Shown: piece by piece, positions 1,729-44,054 of the stretch | Position numbering within the stretch: the first letter of the stretch is position 1 | Layout of the letters: the number at the start of each line of letters is the position of its first letter | Assembly: GCA_963746775.1 (NCBI GenBank) | Contig: CAVVCK010000002.1 | Span: forward strand, 75,571-139,570 | DNA from: an uncultured bacterium | GTDB taxonomy: Bacteria > Patescibacteriota > JABMPQ01 > CAVVCK01 | Reading direction: 5' to 3' | DNA: 64,000 nt | Position numbers and translations under genes: made by a program | Notes under the pieces: generated by a model | The model's input: the letters and a program-made list of their open reading frames with translations, nothing else | What the model was told of the DNA's origin: nothing | Database searches by the model: none

Positions 1729-2818
1729 GGTAGCAATCTATAATTTTTTGTACTAATCTTTTTATATCGAATTTATTTATTAATATCGAAATATTTTTAC
1801 TAAATTCATTTCTATTTTTTAAAATTTCAACTATTGCTTTTGATAGTGCTTCTATATTCTTTGGTTCGACAATAATTCCAGCTTTATATTCTTCAATCTT
1901 TTTAGCTATACCAACAATATTCGTAGTAATCACAGGAGTACCACAAGCTAAGGCTTCTAATAAAACAATTCCAAACCCTTCTTGTGTTGAATCTGTGGAT
2001 GGCAATACAAAAACTTCATACTTATTATAACATTCTACTAATTTTTCATCTGGAATAAATCCTTGAAATTCTACATTGTTTTCTATACCCAACTTTTTAG
2101 TTTTAACTTTGTAATATTCTAATAATTTTCCCTTACCTCCCACAATTAACTTTATATTTGGAATTTCTTTTTTTACACTTTTTATGGCTTCCAATAAATA
2201 ATCTAAACCTTTATAGGCATGATATTCATCTAGAATACTAAGAAAGAATATGGTATTATTTTGTTTTTTTATATCTATTTTTTTGAATATTTTTCTATTA
2301 ACGCCAATTGGGATAAATTGAACTTTTGATGAATATTTTTTAAGATACTTCGATGTTTGAAGATAATTTGGTCCAATGGTAATAATTTTATCAGCAAGTT
2401 TTAAAGTTAGTTTTAAAAGCGTGTTGTTATAAATTTTTGAAATTATATTCCCCGCTCCATTTCCTGTAATATCATTACAATATGAAATAACAACTTTTTT
2501 TCCCCTTAATTTAGCAATAATTGCCGACCAATCTGCGCTCCATGGAGTAGGTAGGTAAGTATGTATAATATCAAATTCTTCTTTCCATAATCTAAAAGGT
2601 AATATTAGGGTTAAATTTGTATTAGCAATTTTACATAAATAGTCTAATCTCTCTATTCTGAAACCATTGAGGTTTTTAATATCAGACTTAGGTTCATTGG
2701 CGCAAATAACTTTAACCTTATTACCCAATCTAACAAGTTCTTTCGAAATATCTAAGGCGTAATTTTCTACTCCGCCTGTATAGGGATAAAATCTAACTGG
2801 AGTTTGAACTATTTTCAT
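1712..2818 (-). CDS. Glycosyltransferase family 4 (GT-B fold)
   Basis: 368 aa; N-terminal YPYTGGVENY and C-terminal EGFGIVLLEALACGTPVI motifs typical of GT4/RfaG-like enzymes. Confidence 0.8.
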   Translation of the reverse strand: MKIVQTPVRFYPYTGGVENYALDISKELVRLGNKVKVICANEPKSDIKNLNGFRIERLDYLCKIANTNLTLILPFRLWKEEFDIIHTYLPTPWSADWSAIIAKLRGKKVVISYCNDITGNGAGNIISKIYNNTLLKLTLKLADKIITIGPNYLQTSKYLKKYSSKVQFIPIGVNRKIFKKIDIKKQNNTIFFLSILDEYHAYKGLDYLLEAIKSVKKEIPNIKLIVGGKGKLLEYYKVKTKKLGIENNVEFQGFIPDEKLVECYNKYEVFVLPSTDSTQEGFGIVLLEALACGTPVITTNIVGIAKKIEEYKAGIIVEPKNIEALSKAIVEILKNRNEFSKNISILINKFDIKRLVQKIIDCYHEITN

Positions 2819-3979
2819 TAATTATGTTTTTATAGTATTTTTCTAAATTTTCTATTACCTTTTTCCAATCATATTTAACAACCGACTCTTTAGAATTAAT
2901 ACTTAATTTATTTAATTTATTATTATTTTCTAAAATTTTCTTTGTTTTTCTATAAATATCATTAGTGTTTAATCCTAGCACAAAACCATTGTAATTTTCT
3001 TTAATTAAATCTTTGGCTGCATTATCCTTATGATTAATAGTTATAACTGGCAAACCACAAGCGTTAGCTTCTAACACAACTATTCCAAATCCTTCACGTA
3101 TTGAGGGTAATACAAAAACTTTAGATGATTTAAAATATGAATAAAGATCATGCTGTTTTTCTAAAAATCCTTTAAAAATTATATTTTCCTCTAACTGTAA
3201 GTTTTTAGTTAAATTAATAAGTTTTTCTTTTTCTGGACCATCGCCTATAATTAAACACTTTATTTCAGGAAATATTATTTTTAATTTTGCTACTGCCTCA
3301 ATAATTATATCTACATTTTTTTCCTTAATTAATCTGCCAGCAAAAATAATATCGGAATTGACTTGATTGGATTTAATTTTATTTATATTATTTATATCAA
3401 TCCCAATCCCGATAGTACTTATATTATTCTCTTTATTGGAATTATCTTTAATTATTCTGTTCGTTGTAAAATTCGATATTGAAATAATATTAGATGATAG
3501 TAAAATTACTATTTTTTCAATAAAATATCCTAAATATCCTGCTAGTTTTAAATATTTCCGCCAATATTCTTTTCCCCAATATTCAAACCAGGTAATTACT
3601 AAAGCTATTCTTTTTATCTTTGAATAAATAAAGCAAGGAAAAACTGAAAAATAAGGAAAAGCTGCGCAATCAACTAAATCAAATTTTTCTTTAAAAAGCG
3701 GCTTAATTAATTTTAGGCCAAAATAGATAGCTTGCCCATCGAGCGTCGACCAGATTCTATATATAATTTCTTAGGCTTACAAACACTATGATACCAAATA
3801 TTATTTTTAAAAATAATATCTTCTCCCTGCCAAAATTTCATAGAAAAAAAATGAATTTCGTGTTCATTCTTTCCGCCTACAGCCAATCTAGATAATCTTT
3901 TACCAATTTCATAATATCTTTTTTCACCCCCACCCTTAACATAAGGATACAAACAATCATATATAAAAGCTATTTTCAT
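2793..3979 (-). pseudogene. GT4 glycosyltransferase interrupted by a single frameshift near 3713-3780
   Basis: N-terminal GT4 domain ORF 3713..3979 ([24 protein letters not shown]...). A second frame, open from about 3780 to 2793, encodes the rest (...GRLIKEKNVDIIIEAVAKL...EGFGIVVLEANACGLPVI...). Joined they give about 395 aa. Confidence 0.55.
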
Positions 3980-5136
3980 TTACTGTCTTTATTTAAATTT
4001 ATATCAAGAATACCATAAAAAAATGCAGAAAATATTATCTGTAATCCTAAAATTATTAAAATCATAGAGGTTAAACTCTTCCTTATTTCATATAATTCTC
4101 CAAAATCCACTTTGTACCAAGTATAAAATACATATATCCCCATTATAATCCCTAGAAATAAAACTAAAAATCCTAATTTTAACATTTTCTCTAAAGAAAT
4201 ATACTTTTCTGAAAATTTATTCATTTTACCTTTAGATATTAAACCCTCAGAATAAGCATAAATTTTTGTAAAAAGTCCAAAACTAACTATTTGAAAGCCT
4301 ACTATTGTTAAAAGCGCTCCTAGAAACATCGGGTGAATATCCAGGGTAACATTTCCTAACTTAATTGGTCCAAAAGTCATCCAAATAACTAAAAGCAATC
4401 CTAGACCTGTTAAAAAAAATCCCGGAGCTAAAAATAAATAAGAAGGAGACATAATCAACATAAATTTTAAATGACGCCAACCATCATTAAATGTCTCTAG
4501 CTTAGATTCACCTTCTCTGATACCATACTCTATAGGCAATTCCTTAATTTTCAAATTTTCACGGGCAGCCGCCATAATCATTTCTGAAGCATATTCCATA
4601 CCCTCAGTTTTCAATTTTAATTTATCATAAGCCTGTCTTGTAAATGATCTAATACCGCAGTGAGCATCTTTAACCTTTACTTTAAATAAAATTCTTAAAA
4701 TAGCTGATAAAATAGGGTTACCTATATATCTATGTGAAAATGACATAGCTTTTTTCTGCATTTTTTGAGCAAATCTATCCCCTATTACCATATCATAACC
4801 AGCTCGCAGAGGTTTTATAAAATCATTTACAATTAAAAAATCATAAGTGTTATCAGAATCACCCATTAAGATATATTTACCCTGAGCTTCTTTAATTCCG
4901 GCATGATAAGCATTGCCATAGCCTTTTTTGGGCTGGTGCACTATTCTAGCTCCTAGGCTTTTAGCAATTTCAATCGATTTATCAGTTGAACCATTATCAG
5001 CTATTATAATTTCGCCATTGAGGTTATTTTTTTTTAATCCTTTTTGAGCCTTTTTTATACATATTCCAATAGTTTTCTCTTCATTCAGACAAGGCATAAC
5101 CACAGATATTTCTGGTTTGTTAAACTTCATTTTCAA
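3976..5136 (-). CDS. GT2 polyprenyl-phosphate sugar synthase (DPM1/GtrB/ArnC-like) with C-terminal TM segments
   Basis: [13 protein letters not shown]...[13 protein letters not shown]2 signature; hydrophobic C-terminal third. Confidence 0.75.
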
Positions 5137-6052
5137 AATATTTAATTGTTTTTTTTAATCCTTCCTTTAGATTAACTTTTGGTTCCCATTTTAATTTAGA
5201 TTTTGCCAAAGTAATATCTGGTTTTCTTTGTTTGGGATCATCTTGAGGTAAAGATTTATACATTATTTTACTCTTAGATTTAGTTAATTTAATAACTTTT
5301 TCCGCTAATTCCTTAACAGTAAATTCAACAGGATTACCCAAATTCACTGGTCCAGTAAAATCCTTTGGTTGTTGCATCATTCTATATATTCCTTCGACTA
5401 AATCATCTACATAACAAAATGAACGTGTTTGCAACCCTTTGCCATAAATTGTGATAGATTCCCCTCTTAGTGCTTGTAGAATAAAATTAGAAACTACGCG
5501 ACCGTCATCAGCAGCAAGTCGTGGTCCATAAGTATTAAAAATACGAATAATTTTAATGTTAACGTTATTTTGTCGATGATAGTCCATAAATAATGTTTCA
5601 GCACAGCGCTTGCCTTCATCGTAGCATGCTCTAGGACCTAAAGTATTTACATGACCGACATAACTTTCTTTCTGTGGATGCTCTTCTGGATCACCATAAA
5701 TTTCCGAGGTTGAAGCCTGCAGGATAGGTGCTTTAATTCTCTTAGCTAAACCTAGCATATTTATTGCTCCCTGTACCGAAGTTTTAGTGGTTTGTACTGG
5801 ATCTCTTTGATAGTGTATAGGAGAGGCTGGACAAGCTAAATTATAAATTTCATCCGTCTCTATATATAAGGGGAAATTAACATCATGACGAATTACTTCA
5901 AGTCGTTTATTACTTAATAAATGCTCAATATTTTTTTTCTGACCTGTATAAAAATTATCTACACAAATAACTTCATGGCCTCTATTTAATAGATACTCAC
6001 ACAAATGTGATCCTATAAAGCCTGCCCCGCCTGTGACTAAACTGGTTTTCAT
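5120..6052 (-). CDS. UDP-glucuronate decarboxylase (UDP-xylose synthase, UXS/ArnA-decarboxylase-like SDR)
   Basis: [22 protein letters not shown]...[18 protein letters not shown] and YDEGKR catalytic motif match the UXS family closely. Confidence 0.8.
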
Positions 6053-6063
6053 TGTTTTATAAA

Positions 6064-7005
6064 TTATTTATTCTCAATTATTTCTTTAATATTATAACTC
6101 TTTCTTTTGCTATTATAATAAGTTTTAACAGCGATGTCAGCGAGTAGTCCCGATATAAATAACTGCAAACCGGCTAATATCATAAAAACTGAAATAATAG
6201 GCCAGATTCTATTACTTAGAGTAAAATATTCCAAAAATCTACCAATTAATAAAAATACTAATATAAAAGATCCTGCACCACCTATTAGAATACCCAATCC
6301 TCCAAACAAATGCAGAGGTCGAGAAGAATATTTTCTCCAAAACCATACTGACCAAGCATCAATGAATCCTTTGACAATTCTTTTCCAATTATATTTGCTC
6401 TGACCATATTTTCTTTCCTCATGTCTTACTTTTACTTCGGTTATTTTAAATCCTTGCCAGCGTAGGATGGCTGGTATAAATCTATGCATTTCACCATAAA
6501 GATCTAAATCTTCAAAACATTCTCGCCTATAAACTTTTAGAGTACAACCAGAATCGTGAATATTATCTTTTATTAAAAAGCTACGTAAATATTCTGCTCC
6601 TTTGGAAAATAATTTCTTTGAAAATGGATCTTTCCTTGGAAATCGCCATCCAGAAACTACATCATAACCTTCTTCTAGTTTTTCTATCAATTTTGGAATT
6701 TCTGCTGGAGGATTTTGGCCATCTCCATCTAAAGTTATAATTATTTCCCCCCTACTTGCTTTAATTCCAGCATCCAAAGCAGCAGTCTGACCAAAGTTTT
6801 TACGAAATCTAATAATTTTTAGAGGAGTTAAACTTTTTATAATTTCAAAAGATTTATCTGTGCTGCCGTCATCGATGAAGATTATTTCATAAGAACTATC
6901 TATTGATTCTATTACTTTTACAATATCCTGATGTACTTCTCCAATAATCTCAGACTCATTAAAAATAGGAACTATAATTGAATATTTTAAATTATTTGAT
7001 GTCAT
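6064..7005 (-). CDS. GT2 polyprenyl-phosphate glycosyltransferase (GtrB/ArnC-like) with C-terminal TM helices
   Basis: [11 protein letters not shown]...[11 protein letters not shown]...[11 protein letters not shown]; two C-terminal hydrophobic helices. Confidence 0.75.
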
Positions 7006-7239
7006 TAGTTGTGCATTGTAAATGTTTGAATAATATTTTTATTATATTACCAATATAGAAATTCATGCCAGATAATTAATATCTATCTGTCTATTAATAA
7101 CTATGCTTATATATCCAAATTATTTATAAATCTACCTTAAATAATAACAAACTAAAAAATAGCTGTCTATCCTATTGTTTTTTATTGTACTTATGATAAA
7201 TTATTAATAATTATTATTTAAAATTTACGAAAAAATAAA

Positions 7240-8265
7240 ATGAAAAAGGCATTAATTACTGGCATAACCGGCCAGGATGGTTCTTATTTAGCTGAATTCT
7301 TGTTAAGAAAGAAATATAAAGTTTATGGTTTAGTCAGGCGTTCTAGTACAGAAAAATTTGATCGCATAGCTCATATAATTGATAAAATTGAACTTATCCA
7401 AGGTGATCTTACCGATCAAAGTTCTCTTATTTCTGCCTTACAAATTTCTAAACCAGACGAAGTCTACAACTTAGCTGCTCAGTCATTTGTTCCAACATCA
7501 TGGAATCAATCTATTTTGACTGGCAATATTACCGCCCTAGGAGTTACAAGAATACTTGAAGCTATAAGGACTGTTAATCCTAAAATAAGATTCTATCAGG
7601 CTTCTAGTTCAGAAATGTATGGTAAGGTCAGAGAAACTCCACAGAATGAAGATACTCCTTTTTATCCCCGCTCTCCCTATGGTGTATCTAAGGTTTATGG
7701 TCATTATATTACTGTTAATTTCAGAGAGAGTTATAATATGTTTGCCGTATCAGGTATATTATTTAATCACGAATCTCCACGTCGAGGCTTAGAATTCGTA
7801 ACGCGTAAAATTACTGACGGGGTAGCTAAAATTAAACTTGGCCTAGCTTCTGATTTGCAAATGGGTAATTTAGAAGCTAAAAGAGATTGGGGGTTCGCAG
7901 GTGATTATGTTCAATTAATGTGGAAAATGCTGCAACAGAAAAAACCAGAAGATTATGTTATCGGTACAGGAAAAACTCATTCTGTAAGAGAATTTATAGA
8001 AATTGCTTTTGATTATGTCGGTTTAGACTACAAGAAATATGTTAAAGTGAATAAAAAATTTGTCCGCCCTGCAGAAGTTGATTTATTAGTTGCTGATCCT
8101 AGTAAAGCTCATAAAAAACTTGGATTTAAGCCAAAGGTATCTTTTGAAATGTTAATCAAAATGATGGTAAAAGCAGATTTGGAAAGATTATCAAATGAGT
8201 CAAAATATCAATTAGTTAGCGGGAAAAAGGGTAAAAAATATCATAATACTGTAGGAAATATGTAA
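7240..8265 (+). CDS. gmd: GDP-mannose 4,6-dehydratase
   Basis: MKKALITGITGQDGSYLAEFLL...GLVRRSS...SEMYG...NHESPRRG, a canonical Gmd sequence. Confidence 0.9.
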   Translation: MKKALITGITGQDGSYLAEFLLRKKYKVYGLVRRSSTEKFDRIAHIIDKIELIQGDLTDQSSLISALQISKPDEVYNLAAQSFVPTSWNQSILTGNITALGVTRILEAIRTVNPKIRFYQASSSEMYGKVRETPQNEDTPFYPRSPYGVSKVYGHYITVNFRESYNMFAVSGILFNHESPRRGLEFVTRKITDGVAKIKLGLASDLQMGNLEAKRDWGFAGDYVQLMWKMLQQKKPEDYVIGTGKTHSVREFIEIAFDYVGLDYKKYVKVNKKFVRPAEVDLLVADPSKAHKKLGFKPKVSFEMLIKMMVKADLERLSNESKYQLVSGKKGKKYHNTVGNM

Positions 8266-33223: not shown

Positions 33224-33568
33224 CTATAGATAACCTCTAATACACCGTTCTATATTTTCTAAAACATCTAAATTATTAAATCTTAATACCTTTAAATTTA
33301 AGGTTCTTTTTAGGAAATATTCTCTTTCTTTGTCTTTAACTATATTTTCTTCTTCATAATGCTGGCTGCCATCTACTTCTATTACTAATCTTTTGGTAGG
33401 ACAGTAGAAATCTACTACATATCTATCTAAAGGTTTTTGTCTATAGAATTGGACATTATTGATTTGTTTTCTTCTAATTCTAGCCCATAGTATTATTTCA
33501 GCTTCAGTCATAGTTTTTCTTAGCTTTCTGGCTATAGGCTTTATATACGGCTGATAATATTTTCTCAT
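33224..33568 (-). CDS. DUF559 endonuclease-domain protein (Vsr/restriction-endonuclease-like fold)
   Basis: 114 aa: TEAEIILWARIRRKQINNVQFYRQKPLDRYVVDFYCPTKRLVIEVDGSQH, typical DUF559. Flanked by GC-rich hairpins in AT-rich intergenic DNA. Confidence 0.75.
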   Translation of the reverse strand: MRKYYQPYIKPIARKLRKTMTEAEIILWARIRRKQINNVQFYRQKPLDRYVVDFYCPTKRLVIEVDGSQHYEEENIVKDKEREYFLKRTLNLKVLRFNNLDVLENIERCIRGYL

Positions 33569-33699: not shown

Positions 33700-34842
33700 T
33701 TATAACATACAATAATCTAAATACTTCCCCGCTATTTTCTTCATGTTAAATTCTTTTATTAACTCTACATTATTTTCTCTAATTTTTCTATATAATCCCC
33801 TATTTTCTTTTAATTCTAAAATCAATTTAGCAATTTCTCTATAATCATCATTATTTTCAATATACAAAGCATTTTGCCTATCGATTAAAAATGATCTCGG
33901 TCCGCCTGATTTGGTTGATATAATTGGCAGGCCACAATATAGCGCTTCTTGAAAATTTATGCCAAATCCTTCATGTTCTGAAGTACTAATAAATACATCC
34001 GAACAATCCAAATATTGATATTTTTTTCTCTCTGAAACAAATCCTAAAAATTTAACCCTATTATCTAAATTATATTTTTTATTTAATTTTTCTAAGCTTT
34101 CTTTTTCCGGTCCATCGCCTATTATTAATAATTTTATATTTTTATCTTCTATATTACTTAGAGCTTTAATTATTCTATCTATTCTTTTTCTTCTTATTAA
34201 GCGGCCCAATGATATTAAATAAAAAATATTTTCACTCAGGTCTAAATTTTTCCTGGAAACTTTTTTAAACTCATAAGGTTTATATCCAATAGGAATAATT
34301 TTTATTTCTTTTTTTATTTTATAATATTTTATTGCCTTATTTTTTACATCCTGAGAGTGGGCAATTATTTTATTAGCCCTATTCAATAGAAATTTTATAA
34401 TATTTTTAAATAATAAATTTTTATGCGGTTTTATTTTATAATTAGGATTATATATATCTCCACCATGAATATCTAATATATTTTTTATTCTAAATATTTT
34501 AGATAATAAATAACCTACAGGCCCAGTTGGAATTACAAAGTGAGTATTAATAAATTCATATTTATTTTCTCTACATAATTTATACCCTTTTATCAAGGCA
34601 CTAATATTATAAGTAAACATAGATAAAAATGTAGCGCTATTTTTATCTTTTCTATTTAATACTTTTACTCTAAAAATATTAATACTATCTTTGCTTTCAT
34701 ATTTTAATAAATTTTTATACTTAGAAGTAATAATATCAATTTTATAATCTAATTTGATCCATTCATTAATTAAATCCTGAATTACTCTTCCTCCTCCCCC
34801 ACCTAAAGGTGGGTATTCATAATTTAAAACTAATATTCTCAT
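33700..34842 (-). CDS. GT4 glycosyltransferase
   Basis: MRILVLNYEYPPLGGGGGRVIQDL...; C-terminus EHEGFGINFQEALYCGLPIISTKSGG. Confidence 0.75.
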   Translation of the reverse strand: MRILVLNYEYPPLGGGGGRVIQDLINEWIKLDYKIDIITSKYKNLLKYESKDSINIFRVKVLNRKDKNSATFLSMFTYNISALIKGYKLCRENKYEFINTHFVIPTGPVGYLLSKIFRIKNILDIHGGDIYNPNYKIKPHKNLLFKNIIKFLLNRANKIIAHSQDVKNKAIKYYKIKKEIKIIPIGYKPYEFKKVSRKNLDLSENIFYLISLGRLIRRKRIDRIIKALSNIEDKNIKLLIIGDGPEKESLEKLNKKYNLDNRVKFLGFVSERKKYQYLDCSDVFISTSEHEGFGINFQEALYCGLPIISTKSGGPRSFLIDRQNALYIENNDDYREIAKLILELKENRGLYRKIRENNVELIKEFNMKKIAGKYLDYCML

Positions 34843-34952
34843 AAAAATATAATTTATTCTTCAAATATAAAATACCCCTTCAAAAAATATAAAGCAATTA
34901 AATAATTATACTTTCTAAAGGGGTATTAGGAGACTCGTGGAAACGAATCTCC

Positions 34953-36167
34953 CTATTCAAGGTAGGAGTTGTAGATATCATGAACCTCGTCCTCGGAGAG
35001 AGGGCGAGGGTAGAAAGAAATTTGAGATAGCTCACCGTTAAATGATGAGCCACCAGGATTACTGAGGGGGCACCAACCCTTTCCTATCCGAACAGGGCGG
35101 TCCGGAATGTCTATTTCTCCAGCAACATGATCCACCCTGTCCAATCTCCCGTTGACATATATTTGCACCCCTGTATTTGATCTTACCACTGTGTAGTAGT
35201 ATCTACCCACTCCACAGATGGAAGATCCCACCCATTCTTGAGAGATGCCGTCAACACTATACGTAAATATCAGACAATTCCCCCCCAAATTGTGGCGGAG
35301 TACTTCCCAACTGAAGTTCTCAGTTGAAAGACACGCCCTCCCACGACCGATAATGATTTCTGTATTTTCATTAATTTCTTCTCTGATTGTGACCCAGAAC
35401 GCCACGGAAAACTCCGTGACATCCACGAGATCCGGCCGATTCCCAGCCGATTCTTCGGTATAGACCTCGGAATAGGCCCCTCCCTCGAATGAGAGGGCTC
35501 CGTCCGAGGCCTCGGCCCCATAATTGTACGAATGGTTGTAGCCACTCGTAGAATATAATACTTCTCCATCATCCATAAGGGATGACGCTCCAATATAGCA
35601 GAACCCAAGGCCGTTCTCAACGACCTCGTCACAGTCGTTGTCGATGCCGTCGCATATTTCGAGCGCACCCGGATAGACGTAGGGGTCGCTGTCATCGCAG
35701 TCGCCGTCACAGACCATGTAGCCGTTGCCGTCGCTGTCGAGCTCTTCCTCGGGAATCCCGTCGCAGTCGTCGTCCACGCCATTGCAGATCTCCTCGGCAT
35801 CGGGGTTGATGGTCGGGTCGGTATCGTCGCAGTCTTCCGCAACGAGCACCCACCCGCCTTTCTCCCCGCAGGGGTCCTCCTCTGACAGGGCCGGATTCCC
35901 CCAGCCATCGCCGTCCGCATCGCGGTAGAAGGTGCAGAGCACCTCCTCGTCGCCATCGCCATCGCCATCGATGTCACCATCACCATCACCATCGATGTCA
36001 CCATCACCATCACCATCGATGTCACCATCACCATCACTATCGATGTCACCATCACCATCACTATCGCCGACATCATCGATCGGGCGCAGCACAATACCGC
36101 ACCCAGTTACAAACAAGCACGCCAATACCAAAATCAAACCCTTCATCTCTTCCTCCTCAGGAGCCAA
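34953..36167 (-). CDS. High-GC secreted lipoprotein, copy 1: lipobox, (GDGDID)n Asp/Gly tandem repeats, Cys-rich Myxococcales-type putative metal-binding repeats, C-terminal LamG/ConA-like domain
   Basis: Probable start at internal MKGLILVLACLFVTGC (lipobox VTGC). DSDGDGDIDGDGDGDID x5; CDDTDPTINPDAEEICNGVDDDCDG / CDDSDPYVYPGALEICDGIDNDCDE; C-terminal domain FSVAFWVT...YVNGRLD. Codon third positions overwhelmingly G/C, unlike the rest of the window. Confidence 0.7.
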   Translation of the reverse strand: MAPEEEEMKGLILVLACLFVTGCGIVLRPIDDVGDSDGDGDIDSDGDGDIDGDGDGDIDGDGDGDIDGDGDGDEEVLCTFYRDADGDGWGNPALSEEDPCGEKGGWVLVAEDCDDTDPTINPDAEEICNGVDDDCDGIPEEELDSDGNGYMVCDGDCDDSDPYVYPGALEICDGIDNDCDEVVENGLGFCYIGASSLMDDGEVLYSTSGYNHSYNYGAEASDGALSFEGGAYSEVYTEESAGNRPDLVDVTEFSVAFWVTIREEINENTEIIIGRGRACLSTENFSWEVLRHNLGGNCLIFTYSVDGISQEWVGSSICGVGRYYYTVVRSNTGVQIYVNGRLDRVDHVAGEIDIPDRPVRIGKGWCPLSNPGGSSFNGELSQISFYPRPLSEDEVHDIYNSYLE

Positions 36168-36384
36168 CCATTGGCCCCGTCATTATTTTCACCTATTTAA
36201 ATAAATTCTACATTTATCCACTTCTTAATATAAGTAATAATAAAAACAGGGCCAAAACAAGAATAGCAAGACTGATTTTTAAACACGTGGGTATATTCGA
36301 TTCTTGGGGTATATTGTCATCTTAATTTATTTCCTACCTAATTTAAAAAGAACTTACCAAAACACATAATTCCTTCTATGTCAA

Positions 36385-36413
36385 ATAATAGAGAAAATAC
36401 TCTAAAATGTCAA
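36385..36413 (-). promoter_or_regulatory. Sigma70-like promoter (TTGACA-17-TATTAT) for lipoprotein copy 1; an identical copy lies upstream of copy 2 near 38105-38135
   Basis: Minus-strand TTGACA at 36413-36408 and TATTAT at 36390-36385 with 17-nt spacer; about 230 nt upstream of the start codon. Confidence 0.4.
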
Positions 36414-36439
36414 GCTTTAGTGATATATATTTATTTTTT

Positions 36440-36560
36440 TAAAAAAGAGGTAATAATATCAATTTCATATCCTAACTTATCCCATTCATTAATTAAATCC
36501 TGAGTTACTCTTCCTCCTCCCCCACCTAAAGGTGGGTATTCATAATTTAATACTAATATC
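36440..36560 (-). pseudogene. Truncated duplicate of the first 40 codons of GT4 gene 33700..34842, left behind by the tandem duplication
   Basis: 36440-36600 is near-identical to 34720-34880 (MRILVLNYEYPPLGGGGGRVTQDLINEWDKLGYEIDIITS...), then breaks off. Confidence 0.55.
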
Positions 36561-36676
36561 CGCATAAAAAATATAATTTATTCTTCAAATATAAAATACC
36601 CCTTCAAAAAATATAAAGCAATTAAATAATTATACTTTCTAAAGGGGTATTAGGAGACTCGTGGAAACGAATCTCC

Positions 36677-37897
36677 CTATTCAAGGTAGGAGTTGTAGAT
36701 ATCATGAACCTCGTCCTCGGAGAGAGGGCGAGGGTAGAAAGAAATATTGGAGAGTTCGCCATTAAAGGACGAACCGCCAGGACTATCAATGGGGCACCAC
36801 CCTTTTCCTATCCGAATATTACGGTCAGGAGGAATAGGTATTTCTCCTACATAGGTGGTTTCCTCGACCTCCAGGATGCCGTTGACGTACACCCTCACGG
36901 CAGTCTCTGCCTCCGTGACTGCGATATGGTATCTCCCTGCTCTGCAAACGGAAGACACCAACCAATTCAGATTTTCTCCATCAATGCTATAGGCAAAGAC
37001 TAAGCAATGCCCATCTACATTGTGACGCAATATCTCCCAGGCAAGTCTCCCTGCGAGACACGCCCTCCCACGACCGATAATGATTTCTGTATTATCATTC
37101 ACATCTTCTATAAGTGTCACCCAAAACGCCACCGTAAACTCGGTGACGTCCACGAGATCCGGCCGATTCCCAGCCGATTCTTCGGTATAGACCTCGGAAT
37201 AGGCCCCTCCCTCGAATGAGAGGGCTCCGTCCGAGGCCTCGGCCCCATAATTGTACGAATGGTTGTAGCCACTCGTAGAATATAATACTTCTCCATCATC
37301 CATAAGGGATGACGCTCCAATATAGCAGAACCCAAGGCCGTTCTCAACGACCTCGTCACAGTCGTTGTCGATGCCGTCGCATATTTCGAGCGCACCCGGA
37401 TAGACGTAGGGGTCGCTGTCATCGCAGTCGCCGTCACAGACCATGTAGCCGTTGCCGTCGCTGTCGAGCTCTTCCTCGGGAATCCCGTCGCAGTCGTCGT
37501 CCACGCCATTGCAGATCTCCTCGGCATCGGGGTTGATGGTCGGGTCGGTATCGTCGCAGTCTTCCGCAACGAGCACCCACCCGCCTTTCTCCCCGCAGGG
37601 GTCCTCCTCTGACAGGGCCGGATTCCCCCAGCCATCGCCGTCCGCATCGCGGTAGAAGGTGCAGAGCACCTCCTCGTCGCCATCGCCATCGCCATCGATG
37701 TCACCATCACCATCACCATCGATGTCACCATCACCATCGCTATCGGTATCACCATCACTGTCAGCGTCTCCATCACTGTCAGTGTCGATCGGGTGCAGCG
37801 CAAGGCCGCACCCAGTTACCAACAAGACCACCAAAGCCACCAGAATTAGGTTCTTCATCTCGTTCTCCTTCATGAGGCCAACCATTGGCCCCGTCAT
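36677..37897 (-). CDS. High-GC secreted lipoprotein, copy 2 (paralog of 34953..36167) with divergent C-terminal LamG-like cassette
   Basis: Probable start MKNLILVALVVLLVTGC. Central Cys-rich region DNA-identical to copy 1; C-terminal about 110 aa diverged (…GRGRACLAGRLAWEILRHNVDGHCLVFAYSIDGENLN…) before an identical ISFYPRPLSEDEVHDIYNSYLE tail. Confidence 0.7.
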   Translation of the reverse strand: MTGPMVGLMKENEMKNLILVALVVLLVTGCGLALHPIDTDSDGDADSDGDTDSDGDGDIDGDGDGDIDGDGDGDEEVLCTFYRDADGDGWGNPALSEEDPCGEKGGWVLVAEDCDDTDPTINPDAEEICNGVDDDCDGIPEEELDSDGNGYMVCDGDCDDSDPYVYPGALEICDGIDNDCDEVVENGLGFCYIGASSLMDDGEVLYSTSGYNHSYNYGAEASDGALSFEGGAYSEVYTEESAGNRPDLVDVTEFTVAFWVTLIEDVNDNTEIIIGRGRACLAGRLAWEILRHNVDGHCLVFAYSIDGENLNWLVSSVCRAGRYHIAVTEAETAVRVYVNGILEVEETTYVGEIPIPPDRNIRIGKGWCPIDSPGGSSFNGELSNISFYPRPLSEDEVHDIYNSYLE

Positions 37898-38275
37898 TAT
37901 TTTTACCTATTTAAATAAATTCTACATTTATCCACTTCTTAATATAAGTAATAATAAAAACAGGGCCAAAATAAGAATAGCAAGACTGATTTTTAAACAC
38001 GTGGGTATATTCGATTCTTGGGGTATATTGTCATCTTAATTTATTTCCTACCTAATTTAAAAAGAACTTACCAAAACACATAATTCCTTCTATGTCAAAT
38101 AATAGAGAAAATACTCTAAAATGTCAAGCTTTAGTGATATATATTTATTTTTTTAAAAAATATGAATAATCAGTCTAAATTATACTCTGCTTAAATTTTC
38201 ATAGCTATTTTATTGAAATAATTTCTTTTACCCTTGTTTTTATCTAAATTAAGATAAAAAATAGATTATTTAAAA

Positions 38276-38312: not shown

Positions 38313-38331
38313 TACTAGTTATAAATACATT

Positions 38332-38420
38332 CGGAAGCGGGAGGATTCGAACCTCCGATCGCCTAAAAAGACGACAGCAGTTTTCGAGACTGCCCCATTC
38401 AACCACTCTGGCACGCTTCC
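38332..38420 (-). tRNA. tRNA-Ser (anticodon CGA), type II with long variable arm
   Basis: Minus strand GGAAGCG-TG-CCAGAGTGGTTGAATGG...GCAGT-CTCGAAA-ACTGC-long variable arm-GGAGGTTCGAATCCTCC-CGCTTCC-G; T-loop GTTCGAATC. Confidence 0.85.
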
Positions 38421-38690
38421 AAAACCATAAAAACACAAGAACATAAAAATCCACCTCTTTGGCGGATCCGCCGTTAGAGGCGGACAAAATAACAAAAATT
38501 ACAAATACACATTATTTACAATAATTTAGCTATTCACCAAGTTAACAATTTATTCAATTGACCAGTTTTAAAATTATTGTTAATATCATCTTAATTCTAT
38601 TAAAGCTATTATATCTTTAACTATTTAACAATTCAACTATTTCCGCCTCTAACGGCAGATCCGCCGTTAGAGGCGAATAACATAAAATCT

Positions 38691-38828
38691 ATGCCCAAGA
38701 GAACTTATCAACCAAAAAAAAGAAAAAGAAAAAAAACCCACGGCTTTCGCAAAAGAATGAGAACTAAAGATGGACAAAATGTCTTAAAAAGAAGAAGAGC
38801 TAAAAAAAGAAAGAAATTGACTGTTTAG
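38691..38828 (+). CDS. rpmH: 50S ribosomal protein L34
   Basis: [45 protein letters not shown] (45 aa), found by hand translation; absent from the ORF track, which has no ORF this short. Confidence 0.9.
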
Positions 38829-39241: not shown

Positions 39242-39541
39242 ATGACCAAAGGAGGAAAAATTTATGATTTAGAAGAGCGAACCGCAAAATTTGGTGAAAA
39301 TATTATAGAGTTATCTAAGGTAATTATCAGAGACACTATTACTCTTCCCCTAATAAATCAATTAATAAAATCAGGTACATGTGTAGGTGCTAATTATTGT
39401 GAAGCAGATTGTACCGAATCTAGAAAAGATTTTGAACACAAACTAAGTATATGTAAAAAAGAAGCTAGGGAAACTAAACATTGGTTAAGAATGATTGCTA
39501 AAGCAAATCCAAGCATCAAAGACAAAGCTAAAGTATTATAG
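39242..39541 (+). CDS. Four-helix-bundle protein (23S rRNA intervening-sequence protein family)
   Basis: 99 aa; ...SGTCVGANYCEA...KDFEHKLSICKKEARETKHWLRMIAKA, typical of this family. Confidence 0.6.
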   Translation: MTKGGKIYDLEERTAKFGENIIELSKVIIRDTITLPLINQLIKSGTCVGANYCEADCTESRKDFEHKLSICKKEARETKHWLRMIAKANPSIKDKAKVL

Positions 39542-43469: not shown

Positions 43470-44054
43470 ATGCCAGACATTCAAAAACCGCACTGGCCAG
43501 ATAATAGCATTTATTTTTTAACTGGTTCGACATTTTTGCACTATCCATATTTCAGAGAAGAGAAACAAAAGCAAATTGTTTTAAATCAAATTAAAAATGT
43601 TAAGAAAAATTTAAATATTCCTATATCAGCTTATAGTATAGCTGTAAACCATTATCACTTAAAATTTTTTTTGAAAAGAGGCTTAGAATTAGCTCGGGTA
43701 AGACAGATAATGCATGGTGGAACTTCCTTTGTTTATCACAAAGAATATAAAAAAAGACACGAAGAAATGTGGCAATCAGATTATGCAATCGTTATTACTT
43801 CAGAAGAGCTTAATATGAAAATAGCAGGATATACAAGTGGAAATTTACTTAAACATAAAGAAGTCAGCACTTTTCAGGAATTAGAAGATAATCGTTTTTC
43901 AAGTTATTGGTATTTAGTTAAAAAGTTAGGAAATCAATTTGCTCAAGAATTAGTTAGAAGTATTATTAATACAGAAGAAGACAATGATGGCAGAATCAAT
44001 AGAAAAGAACTTGGGAAGCTAAAGCTTCCCAAACCCTTGGCTAAAGCCAGGTAG
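43470..44054 (+). CDS. IS200/IS605-like Y1 HUH transposase-family protein (RAYT-like), probably solitary or domesticated
   Basis: IYFLTGSTF... (cf. YHVTxRG), AYSIAVNHYHLKFFL (HUH motif, cf. MPNHVHLL), MWQSDY (cf. WQGRF). Hairpins in both flanks. Confidence 0.6.
   Translation: MPDIQKPHWPDNSIYFLTGSTFLHYPYFREEKQKQIVLNQIKNVKKNLNIPISAYSIAVNHYHLKFFLKRGLELARVRQIMHGGTSFVYHKEYKKRHEEMWQSDYAIVITSEELNMKIAGYTSGNLLKHKEVSTFQELEDNRFSSYWYLVKKLGNQFAQELVRSIINTEEDNDGRINRKELGKLKLPKPLAKAR

Follow-up and report, generated by a model that had tools for sequence, protein, structure and literature searches.

Mosaic tandem lipoprotein genes with a variable LamG cassette form a GC-rich island in an AT-rich Patescibacteria genome

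Why do two adjacent genes carry a base composition so far from that of the DNA around them, and what kind of protein do they encode? We address this question for a 64,000-nucleotide stretch from an uncultured member of the Patescibacteriota (contig CAVVCK010000002.1, positions 75,571 to 139,570, assembly GCA_963746775.1; hereafter the window), which has an overall GC content of 28.3% and contains two minus-strand open reading frames (ORFs) with GC contents of 0.53 and 0.54, called mechanically at 34953-36167 (copy A) and 36677-37897 (copy B). Our analysis suggests that the pair probably encodes a rare, lineage-restricted, and fast-evolving surface binding lipoprotein of AT-rich Patescibacteria, present here as two intact, separately promoted tandem copies and varied by recombination of a cassette within the head domain.

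Tandem copies, their expression signals, and their mosaic identity

The GC content at third codon positions (GC3) is 0.58 in copy A and 0.62 in copy B, compared to 0.11-0.28 in the 47 other window ORFs of at least 100 amino acids (aa). An earlier, sequence-only reading of this DNA had noticed two high-GC tandem ORFs in an AT-rich setting and a change in composition at their boundaries, and both observations hold, given that the GC profile in 200-bp windows climbs and drops at the ends of both ORFs. Elsewhere in the 64 kb, a GC content of 42% or more is reached only by one tRNA gene and three marginal 200-bp windows. The shift touches every codon family, including G-ending codons (GAG 0.60 versus 0.19 in the background, CCG 0.35 versus 0.08, GCG 0.37 versus 0.06, GTG 0.38 versus 0.10) and C-ending codons in two-fold families (GAC 0.53 versus 0.12, AAC 0.44 versus 0.13, TAC 0.57 versus 0.15, ATC 0.48 versus 0.08). 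Within the gene, GC3 varies from 0.81 in the MopE-type modules described below to 0.42 across segments of one mRNA. The true starts are likely the conserved MK(G/N)LIL codons at 36146 and 37858, which follow GGAGG/AAGGAG; the longer frame that begins farther upstream is interrupted in copy A by a 2-nt indel. The genes are then as follows.

34953..36146, minus strand: lipoprotein gene A, 397 aa, equal to P0002
36677..37858, minus strand: lipoprotein gene B, 393 aa from MKNLIL; P0001 in databases starts at the upstream ATG at 37897

Pairwise DNA alignment, a repeat finder, and inspection of the junction showed a duplicated unit of ~1.72 kb, arranged head to tail and reaching past the ORFs, with about 300 bp of upstream DNA and a 110-nt 3' untranslated region (UTR) in each copy. 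Its parts, together with the adjacent glycosyltransferase gene of family GT4, are listed here.

34723..36445, minus strand: unit A, with promoter, leader, gene A, 3' UTR, and the first 120 nt of the intact GT4 gene
36446..38160, minus strand: unit B, with promoter, leader, gene B, 3' UTR, and a truncated GT4 fragment
36446..36565, minus strand: truncated GT4 5' fragment, 120 nt, marking the duplication junction and fused to the upstream region of unit A
33700..34842, minus strand: intact GT4 glycosyltransferase gene (Pfam), the first gene of a co-directional surface-glycan cluster
38099..38127, minus strand: promoter of copy B, TTGACA, 17 nt, TATTAT, 11/12 consensus positions (promoter scan)
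36385..36413, minus strand: promoter of copy A, identical to that of copy B (promoter scan)
37859..38092, minus strand: 5' leader of copy B, ~235 nt, with a conserved long-range helix in which UUGGCCCUGU pairs with ACGGGGCCAA, ending just upstream of the Shine-Dalgarno sequence
36147..36378, minus strand: 5' leader of copy A, 99% identical to that of copy B

We regard this arrangement as a genuine tandem duplication, apparently with its own expression signals, because a promoter, a structured leader, and a truncated GT4 piece are all part of the unit. The GT4 fragment is ~10% diverged from the 5' end of the intact gene, and at several sites it keeps the state found in the orthologs of two relatives (L002 and L004, introduced below). 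As a separate observation, the fragment holds ancestral bases that are altered in the intact GT4 gene, 4/5 of them GC to AT.

The -35 and -10 blocks are conserved in the relatives L001, L002b, and L004b. Although AT-rich and intergenic, the leader is likewise conserved between genomes, with counterparts at L001:9800-10003, L002:6120-6305, L004:700-905, and L005:1-141, and it contains a TAGGTAGGAAA block. The helix spans ~24 bp, joining UUGGYCCYGY with RCRGGRCCAA, and is also present in the window's own fold. In RNAalifold and pair-count analyses, 87% of cells were paired, compared to 34-57% when the partner strand was slid. Covariation was seen in 10 pairs, compared to 2-5 in the slid controls, and the observed values were not reached in any of 500 shuffles. 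No Rfam family matched the leader, which may be an unrecognized cis-regulatory or mRNA-stabilizing element.

Identity between the two copies alternates along the unit. The upstream regions are 99% identical at the DNA level, and the next ~40 codons, which encode the signal peptide and the first stalk repeats, are 76% identical, with indels and a synonymous divergence (dS) of 0.78. The segments that follow are listed with their coordinates.

37151..37735, minus strand: homogenized scaffold of copy B, 585 bp, 100% identical to 35424-36008 of copy A; dS and nonsynonymous divergence (dN) both 0 over 195 codons
36746..37150, minus strand: variable cassette of copy B (codon alignment), with its 5' boundary at the VAFW motif
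35022..35423, minus strand: variable cassette of copy A (codon alignment)
36566..36745, minus strand: C-terminal tail (22 codons) and 3' UTR of copy B, identical to 34843-35021 of copy A apart from one indel

In the protein, the scaffold runs from the last part of the stalk through the MopE modules into the LamG domain, of which it takes in the N-terminal third. The cassette (~400 bp) is 66% identical in DNA and 61% in protein, with a dS of ~1.5, a dN of 0.29, and a dN/dS of ~0.19; its substitution spectrum is even (A, C, G, and T account for 0.29, 0.22, 0.25, and 0.25 of variable sites), and indels are present. Downstream of the identical tail, the GT4 fragment is again less similar, at ~90%. 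Such alternation cannot arise if one duplication is simply followed by clock-like divergence; several recombination or conversion events are needed to explain it. The alternating identities along the 1.72-kb unit thus support the gene conversion or recombination that had been read from the mosaic pattern, although some details changed. The proposed DNA identity of the N-terminal and central parts is exact over the 585-bp scaffold and fails in the first ~40 codons, and the cassette has the expected identity of 60-70% but is about 400 bp long and not about 330 bp. The last 22 codons and the 3' flank were confirmed as identical, save for the single indel.

Architecture of the encoded proteins

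From the N to the C terminus, each protein consists of a lipid anchor, an acidic Asp-Gly stalk, two PF11617 Cys/Asp modules, and a 219-residue LamG/ConA-like head. The length of the stalk differs between copies A and B.

36099..36146, minus strand: signal peptide and lipobox of copy A (…LFVTG-C, Cys16), PS51257-type pattern
37808..37858, minus strand: signal peptide and lipobox of copy B (…LLVTG-C, Cys17), PS51257-type pattern
37337..37675, minus strand: two PF11617 (MopE-type) modules of copy B (Pfam), GC3 0.81; copy A counterpart at 35613-35948
36680..37336, minus strand: LamG/ConA-like domain of copy B, 219 aa (PF13385, PDB profiles, AlphaFold2, Foldseek); copy A counterpart at 34956-35612

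The lipobox rule combined a basic n-region with the pattern {DERK}(6)-[LIVMFWSTAG](2)-[LIVMFYSTAGCQ]-[AGS]-C and a Cys at positions 15-35. It was matched in both window copies and in L001, L002a, L002b (from an alternative start), and L004b (7/8 start variants tested); the lipobox of L005 is atypical. The suggested lipobox signal peptide is therefore borne out from the likely starts of both copies, and the proteins are likely exposed at the cell surface. Neither Lgt nor signal peptidase II was found among the 30 window ORFs scanned.

Each protein matches PF11617 twice (E = 1e-19; 70.8 bits against a cut-off of 27), with the CDDxDPxxxPxAxExCDGxDNDCD-type module that characterizes MopE/PF11617 proteins. 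Of the "two or three" Cys-rich repeats first proposed, two are present per copy and there is no third here; sequence inspection gives roughly three to six modules in the relatives. The sole PDB relative of the module is MopE (2vov), and the match is limited to MopE residues 4-42. In MopE, His132, His203, and Kyn130 (Trp130/kynurenine) make up the Cu(I) site, and the crystal model begins at Gly47 (PMC3423442). What the window proteins share with MopE is thus a region away from the Cu(I) site; we rejected copper binding as implied by the Pfam name, and the reading of these repeats as metal binding in that sense is not supported. The module is probably a disulfide- and Ca-stabilized spacer. Similarly, the (GDGDID)n repeats of the stalk had been taken as calcium-binding-like, but no calcium-binding hidden Markov model matched them, and the Asp-Gly repeats gave only weak compositional matches to Ser-Asp regions of staphylococcal microbial surface components recognizing adhesive matrix molecules (MSCRAMMs).

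The head matches PF13385 (Laminin_G_3) in both proteins, with E values of 2e-14 to 4e-14 and 53-55 bits against a cut-off of 27.6. A profile of the domain, made mostly of distant LamG domains (alignment A5), gave its best PDB match (E = 1.5e-31) to an S-layer-domain protein (4qvs), and arabinanase, neurexin, and pappalysin LamG domains were also matched. AlphaFold2 modeling from a 35-sequence alignment produced a beta-sandwich with a predicted local distance difference test score (pLDDT) of 80.4 and a predicted template modeling (TM) score of 0.81; an earlier model from a 6-sequence alignment (pLDDT 43) was discarded. Foldseek matched the model with a probability of 1.0 and TM scores of 0.6-0.7, including ~0.68 to the clostridial neurotoxin HCN and trans-sialidase lectin domains. 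These approaches agree with the predicted C-terminal LamG/ConA fold. The fold is generic for binding and names no ligand, and no ligand residues are transferable from known structures.

The cassette corresponds to residues 73-199 of the LamG domain (127/219, ~58%) and holds 9 of the 13 strands of the model. By the secondary structure of the model, identity between the A and B cassettes is 63% in strands and 55% in loops, and loops are not enriched for differences. The idea that a ligand-binding face diversifies did not hold up, given that strands and loops differ alike and that dN/dS is ~0.19 with saturated dS. This pattern indicates that the cassettes are old types apparently held under purifying selection and not the product of ongoing positive diversification.

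Relatives, genomic slot, and probable exchange of the cassette

The exact proteins P0001 and P0002 are encoded on a 547-kb contig, and a ClpC marker assigns the organism to the Patescibacteria/CPR (candidate phyla radiation), with Parcubacteria and Patescibacteria group as the best named matches at 64-66%. Relatives that are 45-56% identical to the window proteins were found on contigs of other genomes. Their gene order is given below with the tRNA gene of the window.

38331..38421, minus strand: tRNA-Ser(CGA) (ARAGORN and Rfam), co-oriented upstream neighbor of the lipoprotein slot in the window
L001 (1.05-Mb contig): rnpA-yidD-yidC-jag cluster, tRNA-Ser(CGA), insertion sequence (IS) transposase, one lipoprotein gene, glycan genes
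L002: flanks as in L001, two tandem lipoprotein genes, GT4
L004: lipoprotein gene, then GT4
L005: lipoprotein gene and conserved leader; the contig carries nothing more

The slot is fixed in L001, L002, and L004, where one or more lipoprotein genes are followed by a glycan cluster that starts with GT4, and in L001 and L002 the tRNA-Ser(CGA) and the rnpA-yidD-yidC-jag cluster lie upstream. The genes around the slot are well conserved between genomes (yidC 80-84%, rnpA 72-73%, ClpC 86%), and GT4 is 79-87% identical among the window, L002, and L004. The lipoprotein, by comparison, is 45-49% identical between genomes and appears to evolve several times faster than its neighbors. It is a GC island in every relative: GC3 is 0.44-0.63 compared to 0.15-0.31 in neighboring genes (L001, L002, L004), and overall GC is 0.48-0.56 compared to 0.23-0.37 across four genomes.

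The family is rare. A profile search with the head domain against 1.84 billion representative proteins returned only four 50%-identity clusters with the compact architecture, and the other strong matches were giant multi-LamG proteins. Apart from one irrelevant weak match, the GTDB species representatives gave no further members; none were found in JGI metagenomes, and a final profile search of a 5.8-billion-protein set added only the L008 fragment described below. No relatives were found in IMG/VR either, and we ruled out a phage origin on that basis.

Several features of the slot are recorded here as observations in their own right. The tRNA-Ser(CGA) reads UCG and is upstream of and co-oriented with the GC-rich genes in three genomes, and UCG is ~3 times commoner in the lipoprotein genes than in the background (8.8 versus 2.9 per 1000 codons); this pairing could be coincidence or local tRNA supply. 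In L001, an rve-family IS transposase gene (L001:8754-9698) sits between the tRNA-Ser and the single lipoprotein gene, at the place where L002 has its second lipoprotein copy. Upstream of the L004 lipoprotein gene is the end of an ORF with a GC3 of 0.40 (L004:1-447), which we had considered as a divergent paralog; that candidate was withdrawn, given that BLASTP gave no detectable similarity to the family and Pfam no match.

Evidence that the cassette moves as a module comes from splitting the head at the conserved VAFW and FYPR motifs and comparing the segments across genomes. In the N-terminal third of the LamG domain, the window, L005, and L001 form one group (75-82% identity) and L002b and L004b another (82%). 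The cassettes group differently, with L001 paired with L004b (54%), L005 with L002b (52%), and the two window copies with each other (60%), and between-group identities are 27-42%. In sliding windows, the nearest neighbor of L002b changes from L004b (0.8-1.0) to L005 (0.5-0.67), and that of L001 changes from the window and L005 (0.64-0.86) to L004b (0.46-0.69). Both switches share alignment columns ~470, at the TVAFW motif; between window copies A and B, divergence sets in some ten codons upstream of it. The 5' breakpoint thus falls within one short region in three independent comparisons, and the 3' end of the cassette lies near the RIGxGxC to FYPR region. These discordant segment relationships and the shared breakpoint substantiate the suggestion that part of the LamG head is a variable cassette.

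A cassette was also found on its own. L008:86-466 (ERZ27293393 k141_731841) is a stand-alone 126-codon ORF that comprises the cassette and the conserved tail only, aligns to residues 280-406 of P0001 with 47% identity, and has a GC3 of 0.50 in a contig of 27% GC. An in-frame stop lies four codons upstream, and the neighboring genes (ABC1 kinase, methyltransferase) are unrelated. Such an ORF might represent either a silent donor cassette or what remains of a gene. No further cassette fragments were found in the 64-kb window.

Given these patterns, the ~125 head residues that separate the VAFW motif from the FYPR…SYLE tail are most likely exchanged as a cassette. In this mechanism, a number of cassette types, old and still functional, move between copies and lineages by homologous recombination or gene conversion, with the conserved flanks anchoring the exchange and the same process homogenizing the rest of the gene. 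The outcome would be a varied, exposed binding surface on an anchor-stalk-head protein.

Alternative explanations and comparison with known systems

The composition of the genes had first been taken as a sign of foreign origin or of a strongly atypical gene family. One form of foreign origin would be a recent import from a GC-rich donor such as Myxococcota, inserted beside a tRNA gene and not yet drifted in GC. The GC3 values of 0.58 and 0.62 against a background of ~0.2, the abundance of PF11617 proteins in Myxococcota and other GC-rich metagenome-assembled genomes (MAGs), and the adjoining tRNA gene speak for such an event, and an unrelated MopE gene in another Patescibacteria MAG (L006) lies in an island with a GC3 of 0.85-0.90 against 0.51-0.63. 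Yet the family is syntenic and lineage-restricted in at least four AT-rich relatives, where the 45-56% identical orthologs in the same slot are GC-rich too, and in different genomes the gene is accompanied by a conserved AT-rich promoter and leader. Synonymous differences between orthologs are saturated, at a proportion of 0.62-0.82, and the best-conserved segment is no exception, as the codon is shared at only about half of its identical residues; under a simple two-rate model that was not fitted, one ancestral import would be expected to have shed its GC excess already. No donor lineage emerged, given that no member in a GC-rich context was present among the 1.84 billion representative proteins, the GTDB species representatives, or the JGI metagenomes. 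The window also contains no integrase between the tRNA and the GT4 gene and no second, att-type copy of the tRNA 3' end with up to 3 mismatches allowed, and a tRNA-linked integrative island was ruled out on these grounds. We consider recent import improbable. Because synonymous sites are saturated yet GC3 is high, and no GC-rich reservoir of the family is known, the composition is probably maintained and not a recent-transfer footprint, either by recombination-associated GC bias or by selection. All members share a GC3 gradient (MopE modules 0.48-0.81, N-terminal LamG 0.47-0.61, cassette 0.34-0.52, background 0.11-0.31), and in the window the homogenized scaffold is richest and the unconverted cassette poorest in GC3, which fits recombination-associated GC bias. 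Translational or mRNA selection in a very highly expressed S-layer-like protein, duplicated simply for dosage, could give a similar picture. S-layer mRNAs have stabilizing leaders, to which the long structured 5' leader can be likened; each copy has a near-consensus promoter, C-ending codons are favored in the two-fold families, and the best PDB match of the LamG profile is an S-layer-domain protein. G-ending codons are raised equally, however, where wobble-based selection in an AT-rich genome predicts otherwise; GC3 shifts from 0.81 to 0.42 between segments of one mRNA; and a dosage duplication leaves both the saturated-dS cassette between identical flanks and the cross-genome discordance unexplained. 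We find this explanation unlikely, though less so than import.

Two further possibilities concern the variable block itself. Identical stretches of 585 bp and about 300 bp around a divergent block are known to trouble short-read assemblers, so that strain alleles of a single-copy gene might have been concatenated or a GC-rich contaminant joined chimerically. Such an assembly artefact is very unlikely in our judgment: bubble collapse or unrolling cannot produce the unique, ~10%-diverged GT4 fragment at the junction, the boundary between AT-rich leader and GC-rich ORF recurs in four other independent assemblies, an AT-rich GT4 gene follows the ORF in three of them (L001, L002, L004), and L002 has two copies independently. 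Diversity-generating retroelements are common in bacteria of the candidate phyla radiation (CPR), where they target C-terminal regions of surface proteins, and one of them, or a similar hypermutation process, could in principle make the block. We give this practically no credence, and the candidate was rejected: the substitution spectrum is even over four bases, the cassettes differ by indels, the ~400-bp block has saturated synonymous divergence, a repeat finder detected no inverted or template-like repeat in 33.5-39.5 kb, and no reverse transcriptase was present among the annotated neighbor ORFs scanned in the window. For the function of the head, by contrast with these, there is a serious rival to host or partner adhesion: the LamG domain might bind or help assemble the cell's own surface glycan, with variation tracking glycan diversity or phage pressure. 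The lipoprotein gene heads a co-directional glycan cluster of the ABC-transporter type (GT4, GT2, ABC-2 permease and ATPase, TupA, GT8, and methyltransferases), and it stands directly upstream of GT4 in L001, L002, and L004 too. Glycan genes also lie at the other side of the window (a Wzx-like flippase, Wzy_C, and PMT_2), the unrelated MopE protein of L006 is likewise beside Wzz, Wzy, and GT4, and LamG and ConA-like folds commonly bind carbohydrates. Against it, cassette and GT4 types do not covary, L004b combining an L001-like cassette with a window-like GT4, and the fold alone carries no indication of the ligand. We therefore treat binding of the cell's own glycan as possible but somewhat doubtful.

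Cassette recombination in a surface binding lipoprotein is the reading we favor, and several points weigh against it. The family sample comprises eight gene copies and one fragment on six contigs, so the recombination argument draws on few lineages. Single-copy L001 shows the same GC gradient, and therefore conversion between tandem copies cannot alone maintain GC. The differences between A and B are not concentrated in loops, and the overall dN/dS is well under 1. L008 may be a decaying remnant instead of a donor cassette. No correspondence is seen between the cassette type and that of the adjacent GT4, and a simple link between cassette and glycan gains no support from it. Finally, the mosaic in the window may owe nothing to frequent exchange: two strain alleles could have undergone a single unequal crossover, with one or two conversions afterwards.

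Other features of the window and of L006 are noted here. Two copies of a short GC-rich element beginning GGCGGATCCGCCGTTAGAGGCGGA, 70% identical over 64 nt, lie at 38461-38524 and 38654-38717 between the tRNA-Ser and rnpA, the second just upstream of an apparent rpmH (MPKRTYQP…). A DUF559 gene (33224-33568) stands between GT4 and GT2 and is absent from the corresponding position in L001. Between rnpA and yidD is a gene for a four-helix-bundle protein of the 23S-rRNA-intervening-sequence type (39242-39541), and an IS200-like Y1 transposase gene (43470-44054) lies within the right-hand glycan genes. On L006 (GCA_038064675.1, a Patescibacteria MAG), positions 2638-8133 hold the unrelated MopE-repeat protein P0113 (710 aa) and three upstream small genes; this high-GC3 island is directly beside Wzz, Wzy_C, and GT4, so that the pattern recurs in an unrelated CPR lineage.

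The locus somewhat resembles cassette-based systems of surface variation and belongs to none of them. The closest parallel in composition is vls of Borrelia, in which cassettes average 49.1% GC compared to 28.6% for the chromosome, from which its authors infer selection tied to gene conversion (PMC11499132). As in vls, a surface lipoprotein in a genome of ~28% GC has variable coding DNA of ~50% GC, the GC-richness is conserved across species while the sequence diverges, and tandem homologous units contain an internal cassette bounded by conserved sequence, whose replacement by gene conversion would generate the variation, although only static mosaics are visible here. The proteins have no homology to those of vls. 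Nor does the window show one expression site with a promoterless cassette array: both of its copies are full-length and have a promoter, a Shine-Dalgarno sequence, and a lipobox. The cassettes are ~60% identical here and ~90% identical in vls. Coding-strand GC skew is 0.52 in vls (PMC11499132) but 0.08-0.20 in the lipoprotein genes and 0.35 in the neighboring GT4 gene, and the skew and G runs of the vls kind are absent from the lipoprotein genes. Neisseria pilE/pilS and Treponema tprK share the use of conserved flanks to guide replacement of a variable segment, and L008 resembles a truncated, promoterless donor of that type; in contrast to those systems, there is no donor array in the window, and no guanine quadruplex (G4) or other initiating element was identified here.

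Similar limits apply to the comparison of the proteins. Fold and profile place the head among LamG/ConA lectins (neurotoxin HCN, trans-sialidase, neurexin LNS, and S-layer-associated domains), but here it is the single head of a ~400-aa lipoprotein, whereas nearly all other strong matches are giant multi-LamG proteins. The layout of anchor, acidic dipeptide-repeat stalk of variable length, and folded binding region recalls the staphylococcal MSCRAMMs (Sdr/Clf); the resemblance is compositional only (E values of 0.002-0.1, against cut-offs of about 1000 bits or more), the order of the parts is reversed, and those proteins have an LPXTG anchor in place of a lipobox.

A bolder hypothesis, which we offer as speculative and rather unlikely, is that this small clade runs a vls/pilS-like program of surface variation based on recombination, in which the LamG cassette of a host- or partner-binding lipoprotein would be repeatedly replaced from full-length or promoterless, L008-like copies by way of the VAFW/GRGR and FYPR…SYLE flanks. 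GC-richness would then be a by-product or a requirement of the exchange, through GC-biased conversion or through selection for DNA prone to recombine, and the dedicated, structured leader RNA would control expression. If true, this would be the first such system described in the CPR.

In summary, the locus offers a natural case for the study of base-composition evolution, given that a gene with a GC3 of 0.5-0.8 persists in genomes with ~0.2 long after synonymous turnover. We know of few such cases apart from Borrelia vls, and population data could separate GC-biased gene conversion from selection at this locus. CPR bacteria, including Patescibacteria, are thought to live attached to other cells, and, to our knowledge, the molecules that mediate or vary this contact are largely unknown. 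As an adhesin, the lipoprotein might serve an episymbiotic lifestyle, and the locus thus presents a concrete candidate for a contact molecule, in the form of an anchored stalk-head, lectin-like protein encoded beside envelope-glycan genes that would swap a defined module.

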